From an uncultured Gemmatimonadaceae bacterium (GTDB lineage: Bacteria > Gemmatimonadota > Gemmatimonadetes > Gemmatimonadales > Gemmatimonadaceae): a stretch of DNA of 64,000 nucleotides. The translations under genes and the position numbers were made by a program. The notes under the pieces were generated by a model, which saw nothing but the letters and a program-made list of their open reading frames with translations, had not been told where the DNA came from and made no database searches. This document shows positions 1,502 to 12,150 of this stretch, one piece after another. Location: assembly GCA_963751275.1 (NCBI GenBank), contig CAVVTZ010000006.1, positions 12,365 to 76,364 of the forward strand, given 5' to 3'. The first letter of the stretch is position 1. Each line of letters begins with the position of its first letter.

Positions 1502-2802
1502 CGCACGTCTCCCAATGCAGCCGCCACTTCGCCGGCGAGCTGCCGGCGGCGCGCGGTCAGCCGGCCAATGCGTATCCCCATGGAACGCGCGCAGCCAGAG
1601 GGCGCGCGCCCACTCCATGACGCCGGAAGCGAGCTCGCCGTAGCGCAGCGCCACGTAGCCCGTCACCGCCGCCAGCGCGAAGAAGGGCACGATCCACACG
1701 GCGCCGCATAGCACGCCCACCACGATCGATTCCACGATCCACGCGCCCCCCACGAACAGGATTCCCGAGAGCAGCTTCACGGTGCCCAGCACGTCATCGC
1801 TCTCCGCGTTCCGCTCGGCGACCAGCCCGGCGAGGCGATAGGGGACCCAGCCCAGCACTGCTCCAATGTCGGCGAAGGGCAGCAGCACGATCAGTCGCAC
1901 GAGCGCCCACAGGAACGTCGTGAGACGCACCGGCTCCAGCTCGAGCGACCACGGGTCGCGCACGCCCATGCGGCGCAGCATGCGCGCGTAGTCGCGCGCG
2001 CGTCTCGCGATCCGGTCCACGCGCGCCGGGTCGCTCGCGCTCATCCGCTGGTACGCGTCGGCCAGACGGCGCGCCCGGCGATTGCGCGCGACCGGATCCA
2101 GCGCATCGCCGTCGGAGGCCGTCCACACGGCCACGAGCGCGACGCCGTCGAGCAGCTCGCGCGATTCGGCCTGCAGCACCACCTCGTCGAGCTTCCTGCG
2201 GATCACCTGCGTGAGATCGTGCACGGCCGCGCGCTCGTCGCGCGCGTAGTCCGCGAGGAGCGGCGCCACCGCGATCGGCTCGCCGGCCACGAGCAGCACG
2301 GACGAGCGGAAGGTCACCTTGTCCTCGAAATGAAGCCCCACGGGCACCACGGTGAGGCCGAATGCGACTCCGCTTCCGCCGAGAGCGCGATGCGCGCCGC
2401 GCCGGTCTTGAGCGCACGCAGCGCGGGATCCGAATGCGACGCGCCCTCGGGAAAGAGCGCGATCGCGCCGCCGCGCGCGAGCTCGGCGCGGCAGAGGGCG
2501 AAGCTCTCCTCGTTGCGCGACACATCGCCCGCCCGGTCACCCGACTCGTGCGCGCGATAAACAGGAATGGTGCCGAAGGCGCGCATGGCGGCGCGGCCGA
2601 GCGGATTGTCGAAGAGGGTGCTCTTGGCGAGGAAGCGCACGGGGCGCCCCGTAGCCACGCGCACCACGATGGGATCGAGCAGGCCGTTGGGATGATTGAG
2701 CGCGAGGACGACGGGCCCCGCGGCGGGAAAGCGATCGGCGTGCTCGACGACGCGCACGGGATAGTAGAGGCGGACGAGGGCCTCGAAGAGGGCGGAGATC
2801 AC
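1498..2802 (-). CDS. PlsC-family (lysophospholipid) acyltransferase with C-terminal TM region, frameshifted
   Basis: NHPNGLLD (HX4D), RFLAK and FPEG motifs; continues in ORF 1094..2350 after a shift near 2355; a second shift near 1565 gives ...LGDVR-stop. Confidence 0.8.
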
Positions 2803-2809
2803 GGGTCTA

Positions 2810-2925
2810 AACTACGCGGGAAGCGGGAAGCGGGAAGCGCCGCGGGATGCGAGAACAGCGCGTGGGACTCCCCAGGCTCTTCTCGCACATCGCGGCGCTT
2901 CCCGCTTCCCGCTTCCCGCGTAGTT
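2810..2925. repeat. Palindrome built from GGGAAGC heptamers; possible terminator of the oxidase operon
   Basis: aactacgcgggaagcgggaagcgggaagcgccgcg ... cgcggcgcttcccgcttcccgcttcccgcgtagtt, directly after the last operon stop; a related GGGAAAC x3 lies at about 1069-1093. Confidence 0.85.
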
Positions 2926-3061
2926 AGTTCGCCGTTCTATCCCGCCGCCGCCAGGCGAGCCAGGTGATCACGCTCACCACAAGGAACGCCGGCACCGCGA
3001 GGATCCACATCCCGCTCATCATGCCGTCCAGGAACTCGGCCATCGGGCCGCCCATGATCAT
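2924..3061 (-). CDS. 45-aa single-TM protein closing the oxidase operon
   Basis: ATGA overlap with the subunit IV stop; MIMGGPMAEFLDGMMSGMWILAVPAFLVVSVITWLAWRRRDRTAN. Confidence 0.6.
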   Translation of the reverse strand: MIMGGPMAEFLDGMMSGMWILAVPAFLVVSVITWLAWRRRDRTAN

Positions 3062-3381
3062 GGCGCGGGCGTGGCGGCGCGCAGGTGCAGGAGGCGGAAG
3101 GCGTCGGGCCAGATCTGGTTCATCATCAGCAGCGCGAAGATCAGATAGGGGATGAGCGCCAGGAAGAGCGCGCGGCGCTCCCACTTCATGTGCATGAAGT
3201 ACATGAGCCCCAGCCCCGCCTCGATGAGCGCCAGCACCAGCAGCGCCAGGAAGAGCGTGAGGGTGGGCAGGCCGCGGTAGGTGAGCACCACCTCCACCGC
3301 GACGATGAGCAGCAGCCCCAACCAGACGATCACGTAGAACTTCATCCCCGGCTCGGGGCGGGACTGCGTGTTGGCGGTCAT
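3058..3381 (-). CDS. ctaF: Haem-copper oxidase subunit IV (CtaF/CyoD-like)
   Basis: 3 TM helices, YFMHMKWE motif, position in the cox operon. Confidence 0.85.
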   Translation of the reverse strand: MTANTQSRPEPGMKFYVIVWLGLLLIVAVEVVLTYRGLPTLTLFLALLVLALIEAGLGLMYFMHMKWERRALFLALIPYLIFALLMMNQIWPDAFRLLHLRAATPAP

Positions 3382-3391
3382 GGCGCGGCCT

Positions 3392-4021
3392 CTACTTGGC
3401 GTTCATCAGGTAGACGAGCGGGAAGACGAACATCCACACCAGATCGACGAAATGCCAATACAGGCTCGTGGTCTCGATGTGTCCCGGCTTGAGGCGGCCG
3501 CGCCGGAACATGAGCGCGACCACCGTGAGCGCGACGACGCCCGAGATCACGTGCAGGAGATGCAGCCCCGTGATCCCGAAGAAGGTGGCGCCGAAGAGCA
3601 CCGATCCGCCCTCGGGATTCTTCGATGGGCTCCACCCTTCGCCGAACATGCTGAACCACTCGCGGATATGGAGCGTCGCGAAGACCACGCCGAGCAGCAC
3701 CGTGGCGCCCATCCATTTCACCGTGGCCGGGCGGTCCTCCCGCTTCGCCGCCGCCACCGCCGCGATCATCGTGAGGCTGCTCGTGAGCAGCACGAAGGTC
3801 ATCACGAGGCCGTTCACGATCGAGGGGAAGAAGGCGAAGGGACGCGTCCAGTCGGGGCTGCCCACGCGCAGATAGCCGTACGCGAAGAGGAGCGCGCCGA
3901 AGGTGGCCGCATCCGCGATGATGAACAGCCACATCACGAACTTCTTGGACTCGATCGCGAACGGAGATGGTTCCATCGCCGCCCCATGTCCCCCGCTCGT
4001 CGTCACAGCAGAATCGGCCAC
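3392..4021 (-). CDS. ctaE: Cytochrome c oxidase subunit III
   Basis: MWLFI, LLTSS, TGLHLLHV and LYWHFVDLVW motifs. Confidence 0.92.
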   Translation of the reverse strand: MADSAVTTSGGHGAAMEPSPFAIESKKFVMWLFIIADAATFGALLFAYGYLRVGSPDWTRPFAFFPSIVNGLVMTFVLLTSSLTMIAAVAAAKREDRPATVKWMGATVLLGVVFATLHIREWFSMFGEGWSPSKNPEGGSVLFGATFFGITGLHLLHVISGVVALTVVALMFRRGRLKPGHIETTSLYWHFVDLVWMFVFPLVYLMNAK

Positions 4022-4040
4022 GTCGCCTCCCGACGGCTGA

Positions 4041-4604
4041 TCACACCCGCATCCAGAGGATCAAGAGCAGATAGAGCCAGAGCGCCAGCATGAAGTGCCA
4101 ATAGAGCGCCGCGGCGGCGAGCGCATTGAGCGGATCCGCCCCGCCGGCGCGCGACACGCGCACCGACACGTACGAGAGCGCGATGAGCCCGCCGATCACG
4201 TGCAGCGCGTGCAGCACGGTGAACAGGTAGAAGAACGCGCTGCTGGGCGCCGTGGCGAGATACAGACCCTGCGCCACGAGCGCGCGCCACGCCACGAACT
4301 GGCCGGCGAGGAAGAGCAGCCCCAGTCCGAGCGTCGCGTACAGCAGGCTGCGTCCCGCCGGCGACCCGAGATCGCCCGCGAGCCGCCGCCGGCTCAGTTC
4401 CAGCGTGCCGCTGCTCACCAGGAGCACGAGCGTGTTGACGAGCAGGATCGATGGCAGCTGGAAGCGCACCCAGTCGGTGGCGCCGCCCTGGCGGATGACC
4501 AGCGCGCTCGTGAGCGCGGCGAAGAACATCGCGATCGCGAGGATCCCGACCAGCACGCCGGTGCGCGCCGGCGATTCGTAGCGGGCCGCGGTGGGTGCCG
4601 TCAC
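4041..4604 (-). CDS. Second cytochrome c oxidase subunit III-family protein
   Basis: NTLVLLVSS, LHALHV and LYWHFM motifs; GTG start abuts the coxA stop. Confidence 0.88.
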   Translation of the reverse strand: MTAPTAARYESPARTGVLVGILAIAMFFAALTSALVIRQGGATDWVRFQLPSILLVNTLVLLVSSGTLELSRRRLAGDLGSPAGRSLLYATLGLGLLFLAGQFVAWRALVAQGLYLATAPSSAFFYLFTVLHALHVIGGLIALSYVSVRVSRAGGADPLNALAAAALYWHFMLALWLYLLLILWMRV

Positions 4605-6372
<1,768 letters not shown>

Positions 6373-6387
6373 GCGATCCTCGGCGGC

Positions 6388-7188
6388 TCATTGATTGGCC
6401 TGCGACTTCAGCCATTCCTCGTATTTGTCCTGGGTCATCACTTCGATGTACGCGCGCATGTTGTAGTGCCCGAGCCCGCAGAGCTGCGTGCACACGATCT
6501 CGTGCTTGCCGATCTGCGTCGCGGTGAAATGCAGCGGGATGACGATGCCGGGCACGAAGTCCTGCTGGATGCGCAGTTCGGGCACGAAGAAGGAGTGCCC
6601 CACATCCTTGGAGTGCATGCTGAGCGAGATCTCCCGGTTCACCGGCACCACGAGCGATGCGGAGACGATGTCGTCGCGCGCCGCGGTGTCATTGGCCGGA
6701 TCGAGGCCGAAGTAGTTGTTGTCGGCCTCGGAGATCTTGTCGGGGTGGAGGACGCCGAATTTCCCGTCGGGCCCCGGATAGCGGAAATAGAACGCGAACT
6801 GCCCGGCCTGCGCGTCGATCTGCAGCGCGCCGGCGCCGGCCGGCGCGATGTAGATGGACGCCCATACCTTGGAGCCGACGAGCGTGAGCACCAGCACCTC
6901 GATGCCCACGAGCACGACGGCGAAGATCACCATCGGCCGCGCGCCGCCGGGGAAGATCTTGACCTTCCGTCCATCGCCCCGGTCGGCGAATCGCCAGACG
7001 AAGGTCGCCAGCGCGAACTGCGACACCACGAACAGCACGCCCGACGCGATCATCGTCTCCATCAACTGGTGGTCGATCCCGGCGCCGAGCACCGAAATGT
7101 CGGGCGGGAGCCACCAAATGCGGCTCACGAAGATCGCGGCCGACACGATCGTGATGATCGTGAGGGCGATCGAGAAGAACTTTCCCAC
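6388..7188 (-). CDS. ctaC: Cytochrome c oxidase subunit II (CuA), no fused cytochrome c
   Basis: DVGHSFFVP and CTQLCGLGHYNM CuA motifs; N-terminal TM helices. Confidence 0.93.
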   Translation of the reverse strand: MGKFFSIALTIITIVSAAIFVSRIWWLPPDISVLGAGIDHQLMETMIASGVLFVVSQFALATFVWRFADRGDGRKVKIFPGGARPMVIFAVVLVGIEVLVLTLVGSKVWASIYIAPAGAGALQIDAQAGQFAFYFRYPGPDGKFGVLHPDKISEADNNYFGLDPANDTAARDDIVSASLVVPVNREISLSMHSKDVGHSFFVPELRIQQDFVPGIVIPLHFTATQIGKHEIVCTQLCGLGHYNMRAYIEVMTQDKYEEWLKSQANQ

Positions 7189-7205
7189 GGCGGTCGCCTC
7201 CCCGG

Positions 7206-7970
7206 CTAGTACGGCGTGGCGGTGAAGACGAGATTGACCTTCTGCGTTTCGTTACCCGTAATGGTGACGTCTGCAGTCTTGGTGCCGAACTTCTCCTGCC
7301 ACGCGGTGACGGTGTACTTGCCCGGCGGGAGTCCCGCGAGGCTGAAGGCGCCGTCGGGTCCCGTGACCGCCGAGTGCGAGGTGTTCAGCACCGCGAAGTA
7401 GCCGTGCATCCACGGATGGATGTTGCACTTCACGGGAATGAACTCCGCCTTCTCGTAGGTGACGTCGATCGGCGGCGAGCCCGGCGGCTGCGACTTGTTC
7501 CACTCCGGATTCAGCTTGGGCATCGGGTGGATGTTGTGGGACGTCTGGTCATCGTTCGCGATCTCGAGCTTCTGCCCCGCCTCCATGACCGCGACATGCG
7601 GCAGGTACTGACAGCCCTTCTGCGTGTACTTCGCCGGCGTGGCGGGCGGCGCGGTGTGCGTGTCGCCGGCGGAGATGTAGACCACCACATCGCCCAGCGT
7701 ATTGCCGGGCCCGGTGACGACGAACTCGGTCATCGCGGGTGGATTATGCTCCTTGGCGCAGCTCGGCTCCTTCGCCATGTCGATGGGCTTCATCTTCGGC
7801 GGGGTACCGGTGTACGTGATGATGCCGCTAATGGTGCCGCCGGCGGCGGGTGCGGGCGCCGCGCCGCCGAGGAGCAAGACCAGCGCGGTCGCCGCGCCGG
7901 CGAGCGCGACGGCCGTGGCCGCCGCGCCCGCCGGGAACGCCGGCTTCAGTCGTGAGGGTCGATCCATCAT
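7206..7970 (-). CDS. Secreted cupredoxin-motif protein with carboxypeptidase-regulatory-like domain
   Basis: ATG at 7970 overlaps the upstream TGA; signal peptide; HNIH and CNIHPWM; C-terminal GAFSLAGLPPGKYTVTAW. Confidence 0.8.
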   Translation of the reverse strand: MMDRPSRLKPAFPAGAAATAVALAGAATALVLLLGGAAPAPAAGGTISGIITYTGTPPKMKPIDMAKEPSCAKEHNPPAMTEFVVTGPGNTLGDVVVYISAGDTHTAPPATPAKYTQKGCQYLPHVAVMEAGQKLEIANDDQTSHNIHPMPKLNPEWNKSQPPGSPPIDVTYEKAEFIPVKCNIHPWMHGYFAVLNTSHSAVTGPDGAFSLAGLPPGKYTVTAWQEKFGTKTADVTITGNETQKVNLVFTATPY

Positions 7971-8815
7971 TGTGTGCCTCCATCCGGCCCAATGGGCTTG
8001 AGTGTGTTGGGATGTTCGCTGACGTACTGCTTGTACAGCGCCGACTCCTGCGTGACCAGCAGGGGCTGCAGGGTGCGCAGGAAGTGCACGAGGTCCCACG
8101 CCTCATCCGGCTTGAGATTGTCGGCGAAGGACGGCATCGGCGTGCCATCGAGTCCGGTCATGAAGTCGCGGTAGATGTCCGCGTTCGTCGTGCCGCACTT
8201 GAAGCGCTCGCCGGTGGAGAAATTGTACGGACGGATCGGGTTGTCCTTGCTGTCGGTGAGGGTGGACGCCGACGGGCCGTCGCCGTGGCCCGTGGGGCCA
8301 TGGCATTTCCAGCATTCGAGCTTCTGGTACAGCGCGCGCCCTCGGAGCACGCTCTCCGTCGTGATCGGCGTCTCCGGCGGGATCTCAATGGGCTTCGCCG
8401 GCTGCGCGCTCGCCCACTTGTTGGAGAACGTCTTGATGTACGCCACCAGGTTCACGCGCGTCTGCTCCGTGAGCGGGAGCCAGGACGGCATGTTGGTGAA
8501 GACGAAGCCGCGCGTGACGGAGTTGTACAGATCCTGGTCCGTCGGCAGCGAGCCCGACAGTGTGGAGCGGCACTTGAACACGGCCTCCGTGAAGTCGCGG
8601 GGCTTGGGGTCGATGTACGGCGCGTTCTCACCGTTGCCATCGCCATCCACGCCGTGACATCCGATGCAGAAACGCTGATACGACTTGTGTCCATCTTCCA
8701 CGCTGCCGGTGCGCCCGTCGACGACGACCGGCTGCTGCGCGCGCAGCGAGGCGGCGCCCCAGAGGAGCATGCTCGTTCCGGCGGCGACCGCGATCCTGCT
8801 CGTGTAGGATTTCAT
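7967..8815 (-). CDS. Periplasmic dihaem cytochrome c
   Basis: Signal peptide; CIGCH and CWKCH, each followed by a candidate axial Met (NMPSW, PMPSF); two similar halves. Confidence 0.92.
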   Translation of the reverse strand: MKSYTSRIAVAAGTSMLLWGAASLRAQQPVVVDGRTGSVEDGHKSYQRFCIGCHGVDGDGNGENAPYIDPKPRDFTEAVFKCRSTLSGSLPTDQDLYNSVTRGFVFTNMPSWLPLTEQTRVNLVAYIKTFSNKWASAQPAKPIEIPPETPITTESVLRGRALYQKLECWKCHGPTGHGDGPSASTLTDSKDNPIRPYNFSTGERFKCGTTNADIYRDFMTGLDGTPMPSFADNLKPDEAWDLVHFLRTLQPLLVTQESALYKQYVSEHPNTLKPIGPDGGTQ

Positions 8816-8825
8816 CGGTGGCCTC

Positions 8826-10359
8826 CTAGAAAGCGAAGTCGAGCGCGAGCAGCACGCTGCTGCTATTCACAATGGCGGTCGGGTTGAGCGGCGGCGCACC
8901 CACGCCATCGCCACTCAACGGGACGCCGCCCACGGTCCTGCTCAGCGAATACTCAACATGGAAGGCCAGTCCGTCCCGGCTGAACATGAAGGGATACGAC
9001 CGGAGTCCGATGACGTACTGATCCGTGTTGCCGTAGTTGCTCGCATTGTCCGGATCGGACTGCTGCGTCATGTGCACCTGTTCATAGCGGCCGATGATGA
9101 TGAACTGCGAGTTCGGGATATAGTGCACTTCGAGCAGCGCACCGTTCCATTCGGCGTTCTTCGCGCCGGACGGCACCGCATCGGTGCCCGCCAGCCCGAG
9201 TCCGAGATACACGTTGTCGGACGCGTGCATGAATTGCGGAAGGAATTCGAAGTTCCCGAACCAGAGCTGCGCCGTGGCGCCGATCCGGTAGAAGCTCTTG
9301 TTCATCGAGCCGGTGCCGCCGATCACTTCGCCACCGGACGTCTGGCTGAGCGTCGGATACTGGCCGAGGACGCCGAAGAGGCCGACGCGCTGCGGTCCGA
9401 GCGATTTCGACTGCCAGCCCTTGCTCAGCGTGAAGACGCCGTCGAGCCCTTGCCCGGTGCCGGGGGGAAGGCCGGGCGTGCCGTCGGCGTCGCTGACGAA
9501 CGCGACGGTGTAGCGCATCCAGCTGCTCGCGTCGTGCCCCATCAACTCGATGCCGAGCTGGTTGTCGCCCATGCCGAAGGGATTGGAGTCCCCAATGGGC
9601 ACGAAGTGGTACTGCGAGTAGAAGGAGCCGTTGTTCGAGAGTGTCTCGATGCGCTTCTCCGACAGGAGATTGTCGAGCTCGAACTTGCCCATCTTGATGT
9701 TGACCCAGCTGCTGCCGACGTTGTCGAAACGCACGAACGCCGTCTCGATGCCCATCGTGCCGTCGGGATCGAGCGTCGGCACGAGGCCGAAGGTGATGTT
9801 CTTGTAGAGGGTGCCGAGCATCAGGAAGTCGATGCCCGAGAGATCGAAGCCGGCCTGCGTGATCGTCTTGGAGACGCAGCAGGTGAGTCGGATCACCCGG
9901 CGTCGCGTCCACCGGCTGGTTGGTGGTGGTCTCGATGTGGTACTGCGGCGTGGTGCGCAGCGAGATCGGCCAGTACGACGGATTCTGCCAGATCGGAGAA
10001 TCCTTCTCGTTGCCGAGCTGGTAGCCGCGGTCCTTGAAGGCCTGGCCGAACGGATTGAGCTCGGGCCACGTGGTGTGGCAGGCGGAACAGGGGAGATCGT
10101 ACTTCCGCGCGAAGGCCGGGATCCGCTTCTTCGCGAAGTTGGCGAAGGTCTCGCGGCCGGTGGTGGTGGCGGGTGCCGCGCTATTGAGCGAGGCGGTGTA
10201 GGCCTTATACGCCGCGTTCAGATCGGGCGACGGCGCCGGGGCGTCGGTCATCGCGGATGAACTTAGAAAGATCGCCGCGGGGAACAGCAGTGGCCCGAAG
10301 ATCGCGACAGTCCATCGCCGCCCGCGTACACCCGGCCGTACGGGTAGCAGATTCGCCAT
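8826..10359 (-). CDS. Cyc2-like outer-membrane cytochrome c-porin fusion (frameshift near 9880)
   Basis: N-part IPAFARKYDLPCSACHTTWPELNPFGQAFKDRGY; C-part of alternating amphipathic strands ending LALDFAF; GAGGAGG RBS; about 510 aa joined. Confidence 0.82.
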
Positions 10360-10447
10360 ATGTCCTCCTCTAGGAGATCACCGCGTATCGTGCGCATCGC
10401 CGCGAGACGCGATCGTTCAACGGTCTCGCAACAATTCGGTCGCGCTA

Positions 10448-10476
10448 TTTGTAGGGAGAATTGCCGATGCTGTCAA
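10448..10476 (-). promoter_or_regulatory. Putative sigma70 promoter of the cytochrome-porin/oxidase operon
   Basis: Minus strand TTGACA-N17-TACAAA, about 90 nt upstream of the ATG at 10359. Confidence 0.55.
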
Positions 10477-10584
10477 TGAGGAATCCGAACATTTCACCGC
10501 TGCAATGTTCGCGCGGAGATTGGAAATCGCTTATCGAGCGCCCGGAGTGGCGGTCGGCGTGCCATGAGCGGGATCGCGACGATC

Positions 10585-11359
10585 TCATCGGTAGATCTTC
10601 CAGGCCACCTCGCGCGGCAACAGCACGCGCGCCCGGAGATCGTAGCGCGACTCCGCCCACGCGATGAGTTTCGGCAGCGTCTCGGCTTGCACGGCGGGCG
10701 GAACGTTCCAGGTGTACGAGCACTTGCCGGTGACGATGCGCGAGAGGAATTCGCCGAGCGTCATGCTGAAATCGCCGGGGAAGCGGCGCTCGGCGGTCCG
10801 CTTGAATCCGATCTTCGCGAGTTCCGATCCCACCTGTTCCTCGGTGCGCGCACCCGGATGGAAGGGATCGACGACGCCCGCCGCTTCGAAGAGTGCGCGC
10901 GCCTTCTCGCGCATCTCGAGCCACGCTTCGTCGGGGGCGCCGTTCCCCCATTCGTGCAGCAGCGGCGCGCCGGGCTTGAGCACGCGGCGGATCTCGGCGA
11001 GCACGTCGCGCCAGTCGGGCATCACGTAGAGCACGCGCGCGATGAGCACGCCGTCGAAGCTCGCATTCGGGAACGGGAGCGGCGATCCGGCCCCGCGCAC
11101 GACCGTAACGGGCAACGCGCCCGCTTTCTCGCGCAACACCTGCAACATCCCGTCCGCGGGCTCGAGCGCGGTGACGTGGAAGCCGAGCGTGGCGAAGGGG
11201 ATCGCGACACGCCCGGTACCCGCGCCTACTTCGAGGAGCTCGCTGCCGGCTTTGAGTCCCGCGGCGCCGGCGAGCTCGTTGGCATGCGTGGCAGCTAATT
11301 CGCCGTGCCGCGTGTCGTACGACGAAGCCGCGGGCGAAAAATCGACGCGGAACCGGCAT
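10585..11359 (-). CDS. Class I SAM-dependent methyltransferase (start approximate)
   Basis: LLEVGAGTG motif I, LPFPNASFD, RVLKPG; the ATG at 11359 is out of frame, so a 5' frameshift is probable. Confidence 0.85.
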
Positions 11360-11885: not shown

Positions 11886-11939
11886 GGAAGGCCTTAGGTG
11901 GGAGAGTACAAGGACGAGAGAGATGCAGTAGACAGTAAA

Positions 11940-12096
11940 CAGTGATCCAGAACGGCACGGCAGTCTACAGTCGACAGTCTACAGCCCACAGAAAACAGAT
12001 CACGAACGGCGTGAGGATCATCGAGGCACTCGTCCAACAGTTTTCTGTGGACTGTAGACTGTCGACTGTAGACTGCCGTGCCGTTCTGGATCACTG
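11940..12096. repeat. Long inverted repeat containing CAGTC(T/G)A heptamers
   Basis: 57-bp arms at 11940-11996 and 12040-12096, one mismatch. Confidence 0.92.
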
Positions 12097-12150
12097 GTCA
12101 CTGTTGACTGCAGCGTTACCGCCACTGGTGATGATGTTCGCAGTTCGCCT

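Follow-up and report, generated by a model that had tools for sequence, protein, structure and literature searches.

Cyc2-family porin-cytochrome genes beside an A1 haem-copper oxidase in a Gemmatimonadaceae bacterium: a probable electron conduit from the outer membrane to oxygen

In this study, we report the analysis of a cluster of nine minus-strand genes (10359-2924) in a 64,000-nucleotide stretch of DNA (the window) from an uncultured Gemmatimonadaceae bacterium (assembly GCA_963751275.1, contig CAVVTZ010000006.1, positions 12,365 to 76,364). The genes encode a cytochrome-porin of the Cyc2 family (gene A), a dihaem cytochrome c (gene B), a type-1 copper protein (gene C), a haem-copper oxidase and a small membrane protein, and it is highly probable that together they form an inward wire from outside the cell to O2, whatever the donor. 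That the cluster is a dedicated accessory wire fed by Fe(II), dissolved and possibly complexed by organics, is put forward more tentatively, at a little under an even chance, Fe(II) being the likeliest single donor. The cluster itself is not new, and the window holds a new copy of one already noted in a 2020 preprint (10.1101/2020.03.01.968255), the accessible text of which describes rus-cluster variants in Gemmatimonadetes and other soil metagenome-assembled genomes (MAGs); from its wording, we infer that these are this exact family. The additions made here are a strict co-distribution, a modelled porin-dihaem interface, the identification of the relay proteins and the finding that the K channel is missing.

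The porin-cytochrome and its predicted dihaem partner

Gene A (8826..10359, minus strand) encodes a Cyc2-family monohaem cytochrome c with a beta-barrel porin, of approximately 510 aa, and is split by one extra base near 9887; its N-terminal part carries a CxxCH motif (PAFARKY...CSACH...PEL) and its beta-rich C-terminal part lies in another frame. A published screen for Cyc2 proteins, as far as its accessible text sets it out, uses the haem motif, a PXL motif, a fused 16-strand OprO/OprP-like porin, length and a signal peptide (PMC8406198). The signature defined in that source (PxFARKY, CxxCH, PxL) lies at 10057..10122 on the minus strand. The element PXFAR[Q/K][T/Y] before a single CXXCH reads IPAFARKY in the window and is followed by CSACH, with one CxxCH in intact relatives, and the PXL four residues past CXXCH reads PEL, its Pro being invariant (60/60). 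At the leading Ala of the longer Cyc2 consensus, the window has Arg, while the family consensus keeps Ala. Intact relatives are mostly 430-525 aa long, where at least 365 aa are called for, and the signal peptide was judged by eye.

Among 8,000 candidates scored, 3,199 homologues of the barrel part were found, the intact ones fused to the haem motif and the named ones mostly from Gemmatimonadales. The model of a relative (P0002; 72% identical, predicted local distance difference test (pLDDT) 75) has a small helical haem domain and about 16 long strands, and its Foldseek matches are OprO/OprP and other porins, including 4RJX, 4RJW and 2O4V. Both the fusion in relatives and this model bear out the preliminary description, which had taken the first gene for a single cytochrome-barrel protein, and the motifs and length agree with its Cyc2-like identity. 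Pfam, NCBIfam and PDB sequence searches returned no match for A, and Pfam was also without a match for a Caballeronia Cyc2-like protein. A search of plasmids gave only eight haem-domain matches, all under 50% identity.

Judged from its sequence, gene A is likely a member of Cyc2 Cluster 3 (Cyt572-type). A quick tree with 45 rows placed 23 operon-type proteins in one group (Shimodaira-Hasegawa-like approximate likelihood ratio test 99), which formed a long-branch clade of its own apart from FARQT-type proteins, including that from Caballeronia; this tree drew long-branch warnings, holds no labelled Cyc2 reference sequence and includes one row (L138) cut by a contig end.

Gene B (7967..8815, minus strand; PF00034/PF13442) encodes a periplasmic dihaem class I cytochrome c with two CxxCH motifs and two invariant Met, and is the predicted partner of A. 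Its best PDB match was 6H5L chain B, which we take to be anammox Kustc0457, with E 5.3e-57 over both haem domains, the next match being at 4.5e-07. By sequence search alone, no c4 cytochrome was found among its 10 PDB matches at E<=0.01, and the match to the NCBIfam cytochrome 579 model was weak (E 5.7e-13, far below the cut-off).

A complex model of A and B from an intact relative (L012) reached a score of 0.72, and the best of three controls 0.00; the mark for this score was reached by 116/157 solved complexes and 2/215 mismatched pairs, a calibration that is rough here, our own alignments having been used. Contact agreement between runs was at least 88% and the partner pLDDT at least 85. 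In the model, residues 8-14 and 24-28 of A (CxxCH at 12-16) lie against residues 12-18 and 68-84 of B (haem 1, Met74), the interface joining the CxxCH region and short barrel turns of A to haem 1 of B. As no PDB sequence matches the A profile, it is unlikely that the modelling program merely reproduced a known complex of this kind. The model supports binding of A to B at the periplasmic face, and with it the wire from the outer membrane to O2 that had been proposed earlier and that we rate as very likely. Distant B homologues (36-48% identity) were also seen in about 80 further genomes of the phylum, mostly within open frames of 500-900 aa, so that the domain pair appears to be reused in fusions.

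Full-length A, B (>60% identity) and operon-type subunit II of the oxidase (CoxII) were found in the same 28/301 genomes sampled from the phylum, and none had one of them without the others; the unpublished genome G012 is counted in the phylum denominators. These 28 genomes are patchy within genera and, being kin, are not independent. The A barrel was not found in five same-genus genomes searched, which are 63-89% complete. Among 19 loci from GTDB, the gene order A-B-C-II-I-III-III'-IV was complete in 13, cut by a contig end in five and ended after a broken coxII in one; in 20 fetched regions, which may overlap with those loci, it was complete in 16, the others being cut by region or contig ends, except L026. 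The synteny predicted for relatives was thus recovered. In metagenome loci (the best 80 of 586), B came after A in 48/48 with 1.2 kb downstream, and CoxI followed in 20 of the 23 with 5.5 kb downstream.

A Gemmatimonadota-type host, as first suggested, agrees with the closest named homologues. Lower-GC copies of the operon probably belong to Acidobacteriota, judging from named CoxI homologues that include Ca. Acidoferrum and Acidobacteriia and, in agreement with these, from the nearest Atlas clusters. A contig labelled Ca. Limnocylindrales (Chloroflexota; L026) carries A-B-C with the broken coxII, and its A groups with the lower-GC copies, pointing to possible transfer or mis-binning. Occurring in 28/301 Gemmatimonadota genomes and on Acidobacteriota-like contigs, the self-contained outer-membrane-to-O2 cassette could be expressed and tested as a unit.

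The copper protein, the oxidase and the missing K channel

Gene C (7206..7970, minus strand) encodes a type-1 copper domain in a transthyretin-like (carboxypeptidase-regulatory) sandwich. Its ligands H145, C182, H185 and M188 are invariant in 25/25 aligned copies, and in Pfam it matches carboxypeptidase-regulatory-like models only. The modelled copper domain aligned with amicyanin at Z 10.9 (root mean square deviation (rmsd) 2.8, 85 residues aligned) and with plastocyanin at Z 11.1 (rmsd 1.8, 82 aligned). AcoP (7Z3F) ranked 49th, below both; C has two domains and shares with AcoP only the cupredoxin fold. On the modelled fold, gene C is an amicyanin/plastocyanin-like type-1 copper domain with a predicted Cu site, inserted in a transthyretin-like sandwich; the type-1 copper motif first noticed here is confirmed by the full His-Cys-His-Met set and the cupredoxin fold.

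The oxidase is encoded, on the same strand, by CoxII (6388..7188; CuA motif, PF00116), CoxI (4605..6372; A1 type, PF00115, with seven single-base insertions in the assembly), a first CoxIII copy (4041..4604) and a second, CoxIII' (3392..4021), both matching PF00510 and both kept in position in relatives, and CoxIV (3058..3381; PF03626). Pfam matches for each of these subunits and for the dihaem cytochrome agree with the identities assigned beforehand. The six His ligands, the cross-link Tyr and the D-channel Asp/Asn/Glu are all kept in CoxI, and the A1 motif GHPEVY is found in the window copy and in all readable operon-type copies. Operon CoxII has Phe where Trp is usual, this Trp presumably being the usual electron-entry residue.

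The K channel, by contrast with these kept residues, is missing: placed by alignment, T351/K354/S357 (Paracoccus numbering, PMC8239418 Table 3) are A/V/L in the window CoxI. Lys at K354 was absent from every readable operon-type CoxI in three sets (18/18, 43/43 and 119/119 readable of 120), which overlap and are related, and it was kept in 4/4 housekeeping CoxI, including this genome's own. Similarly, E78 at the K-channel entrance (a label taken from the accessible text of the preprint) was missing in 10/10 aligned operon CoxII and present in 3/3 housekeeping CoxII. Rus-operon oxidases, which are of A2 type, have likewise lost K354 (PMC8239418 Table 3). In its accessible text, the preprint gives K-channel loss for acidophile A2 oxidases and their relatives, not for these clusters; no report of the loss in the Gemmatimonadota cluster was found in two papers that a literature search returned, and Table S1/Fig. 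S10 of the preprint may already give these genomes or their K-channel residues. A literature search on the K-pathway lysine, the A. ferrooxidans oxidase and pumping gave no match. A natural A1 oxidase without the K-channel lysine bears on proton uptake of A-type oxidases and also on the claim of the preprint that K-less oxidases are ancestral.

At least two COX1 matches were obtained in each of the 27 operon-bearing relatives, which makes the operon oxidase an extra one. This genome carries ctaA (contig C7), ccm genes, caa3 and cbb3 oxidases and a hydrogenase.

Instead of wiring the oxidase to an outside donor, A, B and C might supply or protect it, by Cu or haem uptake or delivery with C as Cu chaperone, or by removal of O2 or Fe(II) without energy gain. 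Laboratory K-channel mutants of A-type oxidases are nearly inactive, and a K-less enzyme may accordingly turn over slowly; moreover, ctaA, ctaB and other assembly genes are missing from the cluster, which makes dedicated helpers conceivable. We nevertheless regard this role as improbable, as C, with its amicyanin-like fold, keeps all type-1 ligands without variation, the haem of A is covalent (CxxCH) and modelled against a haem of B, A-B-C is found without the oxidase too, and all oxidase ligands are kept.

Electron route, donor and comparison with known systems

In the proposed wire, the donor would enter the barrel of A and reduce the single c haem plugging its periplasmic mouth, an architecture that is modelled, with the choice of donor leaning on three tested Cyc2-family proteins. 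The next acceptor would be haem 1 of B, whose docking at the periplasmic face is supported by the complex model, and gene order and cofactors suggest that haem 2 of B would reduce CuA of CoxII, directly or via the type-1 Cu of C. The A1 oxidase would then reduce O2, and protons would be taken up via the D channel, whose residues are in place, as the K-channel lysine is gone. Proton-motive force would be gained in this way while carbon comes from organics (lithoheterotrophy).

Electron flow in the opposite direction was also weighed: A-B-C would carry electrons outward, or both ways, with Fe(III), humics or other cells as acceptors, and the oxidase would be a co-regulated alternative sink. This would fit the long metagenome loci with A-B(-C) alone (3/23), the second Cyc2-like gene of this genome, which follows a Rieske/cytochrome b complex, and the midpoint of -130 mV given for one Cyc2 in the accessible text of PMC13692758. 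Against it, the operon has no quinol oxidase gene to feed electrons outward, and every A-bearing genome of the phylum sample (28/28) has the oxidase tightly linked. High potentials are, in addition, usual for His/Met haems and type-1 Cu, and we consider such a module very unlikely.

The donor is less firmly indicated than the wire. All the wiring evidence (co-distribution, linkage and the A-B model) is blind to the donor, and the same inward wire could be fed by Mn(II), by humic or quinone shuttles in their reduced form or by some other reductant small enough to enter the pore. The hosts look like heterotrophs, A sits in its own long-branch clade away from the FARQT type in the quick tree, and the barrel has many invariant Arg; Cyc2 is also reportedly discussed for the Mn-oxidising Manganitrophaceae. 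These points make a non-iron donor a serious alternative, if a somewhat unlikely one, given that Fe(II) oxidation was seen in all three Cyc2-family proteins tested to date, according to the accessible parts of PMC8406198 and PMC13692758, and that a single haem in a narrow barrel has been argued to suit dissolved Fe2+ (PMC8406198, in part).

Several observations weigh against a dedicated wire from Fe(II) to O2. Outside the final strand, the barrel has eight invariant Arg beside eight invariant Asp/Glu, which does not clearly indicate a cation donor. The accessible text of PMC8406198 calls the function of Cluster 3 Cyc2 the most uncertain. Cyc2-like N-termini occur in 124/301 phylum genomes, many of them standing alone, in hosts not known as iron oxidisers; G012 is one of the 124 with a weak Cyc2-like match, and no further claim depends on that genome. 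The oxidase-free A-B(-C) loci noted above (3/23 long loci among the best 80 of 586) and the seven insertions in coxI of this genome count on the same side, as does the scarcity of carbon fixation genes: RuBisCO and CdhC were not found in this genome (83% complete), and among operon bearers a strong RuBisCO match was obtained in 1/27 and weak ones in four more, so that there is no autotrophic pull on the wire. A search for ATP citrate lyase was uninformative, the control genomes giving no match.

The cluster bears on the role of Cluster 3-type Cyc2 in organisms not known to oxidise iron, a matter raised in the accessible text of PMC8406198. Cyc2 is mentioned in marine Gemmatimonadota MAGs in the accessible part of PMC11316326; no Gemmatimonadota Cyc2 is named in the supplement text of PMC7029218 and PMC8406198 (figures aside), and a literature search on Cyc2 Cluster 3 beside oxidase gene clusters in Acidobacteria gave no match.

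The preliminary description had likened the cluster to the rus operon of Acidithiobacillus, whose order is given as cyc2-cyc1-cup-coxBACD-rus-ctaT-ctaB-ctaA (PMC10654088, in part). The likeness holds for the order of porin-cytochrome, dihaem c, copper protein, coxB, coxA, coxC and coxD, for the cofactor logic, and for a CoxI without K354 and a CoxII without E78. It does not extend to the parts themselves, which do not seem orthologous to Cyc1, AcoP/Cup and the rus CoxBACD. The window unit lacks rus, ctaT, ctaB and ctaA (ctaA being on contig C7), has two coxC copies and an A1 oxidase where that of rus is A2, and carries a dihaem cytochrome that is not c4-like by sequence search, a cupredoxin that is fused to another domain and resembles amicyanin more than AcoP, and a Cyc2 of FARKY type. 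By analogy, the operon would work like rus, yet it is no rus operon, failing on rusticyanin, assembly genes and oxidase type. A distant cupredoxin is found downstream of the operon in a few relatives.

The Gemmatimonadetes clusters of the preprint resemble that of the window in having cytochromes c other than Cyc1 and COX3 in two copies, and in that ctaA is usually missing from them, as far as its accessible text describes them. Their origin, according to the preprint, was a transfer from ancestors of acidophilic iron oxidisers, whereas the parts in the window look independently recruited. In the main text of the journal version (PMC8239418), 'cyc2' does not occur, and Gemmatimonadetes rows that keep K354 are listed. 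The expectation that annotation would miss the system did not hold, as the preprint reports such clusters in Gemmatimonadetes MAGs and relatives carry A intact.

Leptospirillum Cyt572, of Cyc2 Cluster 3, has the FARKY haem motif in common with gene A, according to the accessible text of PMC13741234; the same text describes an acidophilic autotroph with a cbb3 oxidase, unlike the window. The likeness of B to Cyt579, also of Leptospirillum, is as weak as the model match given above. Excerpts of PMC10654088 link Cyc572 to Acidobacteria/Nitrospira homologues, and Burkholderiales homologues to A. ferrooxidans Cyc2. The gene of anammox Kustc0457 stands beside that of a type-1 cupredoxin, Kustc0456 (PMC12053348, in part), as B stands beside C; unlike B, Kustc0457 partners a nitrite-reducing octahaem HAO (PMC8042395, in part).

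It is conceivable, though doubtful, that common soil heterotrophs of the Gemmatimonadota and Acidobacteriota arrived independently at a functional counterpart of the rus chain, built of a Cyt572-type Cyc2, an anammox-type dihaem, an amicyanin-like fusion protein and an A1 oxidase, with the K channel lost convergently with acidophile rus oxidases. In that case, the loss of the K channel would be an adaptation to the outside origin of the electrons, and neither acid nor antiquity would account for it; lithoheterotrophy on Fe(II) at circumneutral pH would also be widespread in soils.

Frameshifts, flanking elements and further loci

Frameshift-aware alignment to intact relatives placed one single-base insertion in A and seven in coxI (near 5703, 5663, 5599, 5166, 5015, 4909 and 4815). 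The split in the first gene that had been noticed before was therefore real in the assembly, at one extra base near 9887, with the correction that coxI is worse affected (7 vs 1). All eight insertions are +1, in-frame stops are absent, and the window CoxI is 83% identical to the intact L012 CoxI across the breaks. The insertions in A and coxI are likely assembly errors. Forty-two of 117 control genes, taken from same-genus genomes, are frameshifted in this assembly, in clusters of up to 13 per gene, and splits are also seen in coxA of the other oxidase and in the cytochrome b gene. A public 335-bp contig with three mismatches to the window is without base 5168, and in contig L138, which has the same gene upstream and 86% DNA identity, the base at 9887 is missing and the A frame is open there.

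Were the frameshifts real, the operon would be decaying in this genome, whatever its role in relatives. The insertion density of coxI (7 in 1.77 kb) is above the control mean of 0.75 per kb (84 events/112.6 kb); the source reads of the assembly were not found among sequencing runs, where no RNA run with this sequence was listed and no run contained half the words, and no near-identical listed contig spans the break in A. Set against the uniform, stop-free +1 events, the conserved CoxI, the frequency and clustering of breaks in control genes, the split coxA and cytochrome b genes and the two contigs lacking the extra bases, decay is very improbable. A tblastn count (27/121 genes split) was set aside, as compensating shifts were merged, in favour of the 42/117 count, and a codon-model count was set aside, as gene overlaps were mixed with errors. 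With approximately one third of genes in the assembly carrying single-base indels (42/117), caution is due for any finding that rests on split genes.

All nine co-oriented, closely packed genes of the preliminary description were found, with intergenic gaps of 0-19 nt or 4-nt overlaps. The last encodes a 45-aa single-TM (transmembrane) protein (2924..3061, minus strand), for which no protein family was identified; a homologue follows coxIV in 12/20 relatives' regions, in keeping with its listing as the ninth gene, and it is probably a small oxidase-associated subunit. The single promoter proposed for the cluster stood in part. A putative sigma-70 promoter (10448..10476, minus strand) has a perfect -35 TTGACA at 10476-10471 and a 17-nt spacer, and TTGAC[AT] lies upstream of A in 37/60 non-redundant relatives (counted from a printout, without a shuffle control); its -10 is weak, and a consensus promoter scanner called no promoter-like site within 2700-10700, leaving the TTGACA uncalled. 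No FNR/CRP-like box upstream of A is shared among relatives, with 4/60 scattered matches.

Directly past the last gene, a repeat search identified a 50-bp inverted repeat (2810..2925), a terminator or REP-like element that may not belong to the system, and a terminator scan gave two terminator-like sites, not above shuffles. A second intergenic inverted repeat, with 73 bp arms, lies at 11924-12112 of the window; both repeats are composed of short 6-7 bp units and are REP-like. An acyltransferase gene comes after the end of the operon (coxIV and the 45-aa frame).

Oxidase-free A-B(-C) modules were seen on the lower-GC metagenome contigs L167, L196 and L211 (also L164, L190 and L217). Other Cyc2-like subfamilies of Gemmatimonadota include a FARQT type standing alone and a FARKY type with a monohaem cytochrome (L118-L137, L053), L053 having two Cyc2-like genes beside a porin-multihaem cluster.

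This genome has a second, distant, frameshifted Cyc2-like cytochrome-porin on contig C7 (G000:C7:467750-471470; L039:1754-5469), which comes after a Rieske, cytochrome b and cytochrome c unit and before a monohaem cytochrome c. The cytochrome b of this unit is the only cytochrome b/b6 found in the assembly, in which NrfD was not found. The Rieske/cytochrome b and second Cyc2-like unit is also present in G017 and G275. A role as uphill partner of the operon finds no support across relatives, its barrel occurring in 4/60 of them and in none of the 5/60 with the operon.

Multihaem cytochromes are found at two further loci of this genome. The first (L041:458-18001, on G000:C9) carries a ccm operon, 8-, 17- and 16-haem cytochromes with a barrel-like open reading frame (ORF), and a NiFe hydrogenase with maturation genes, and may be a second extracellular electron-transfer locus. 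The other (L040:4393-11803, on G000:C7) has a large multihaem cytochrome, whose approximately 40 CxxCH motifs are spread across two frames; a 556-aa ORF with a C-terminal Phe comes next, and the locus possibly encodes a porin-cytochrome complex.

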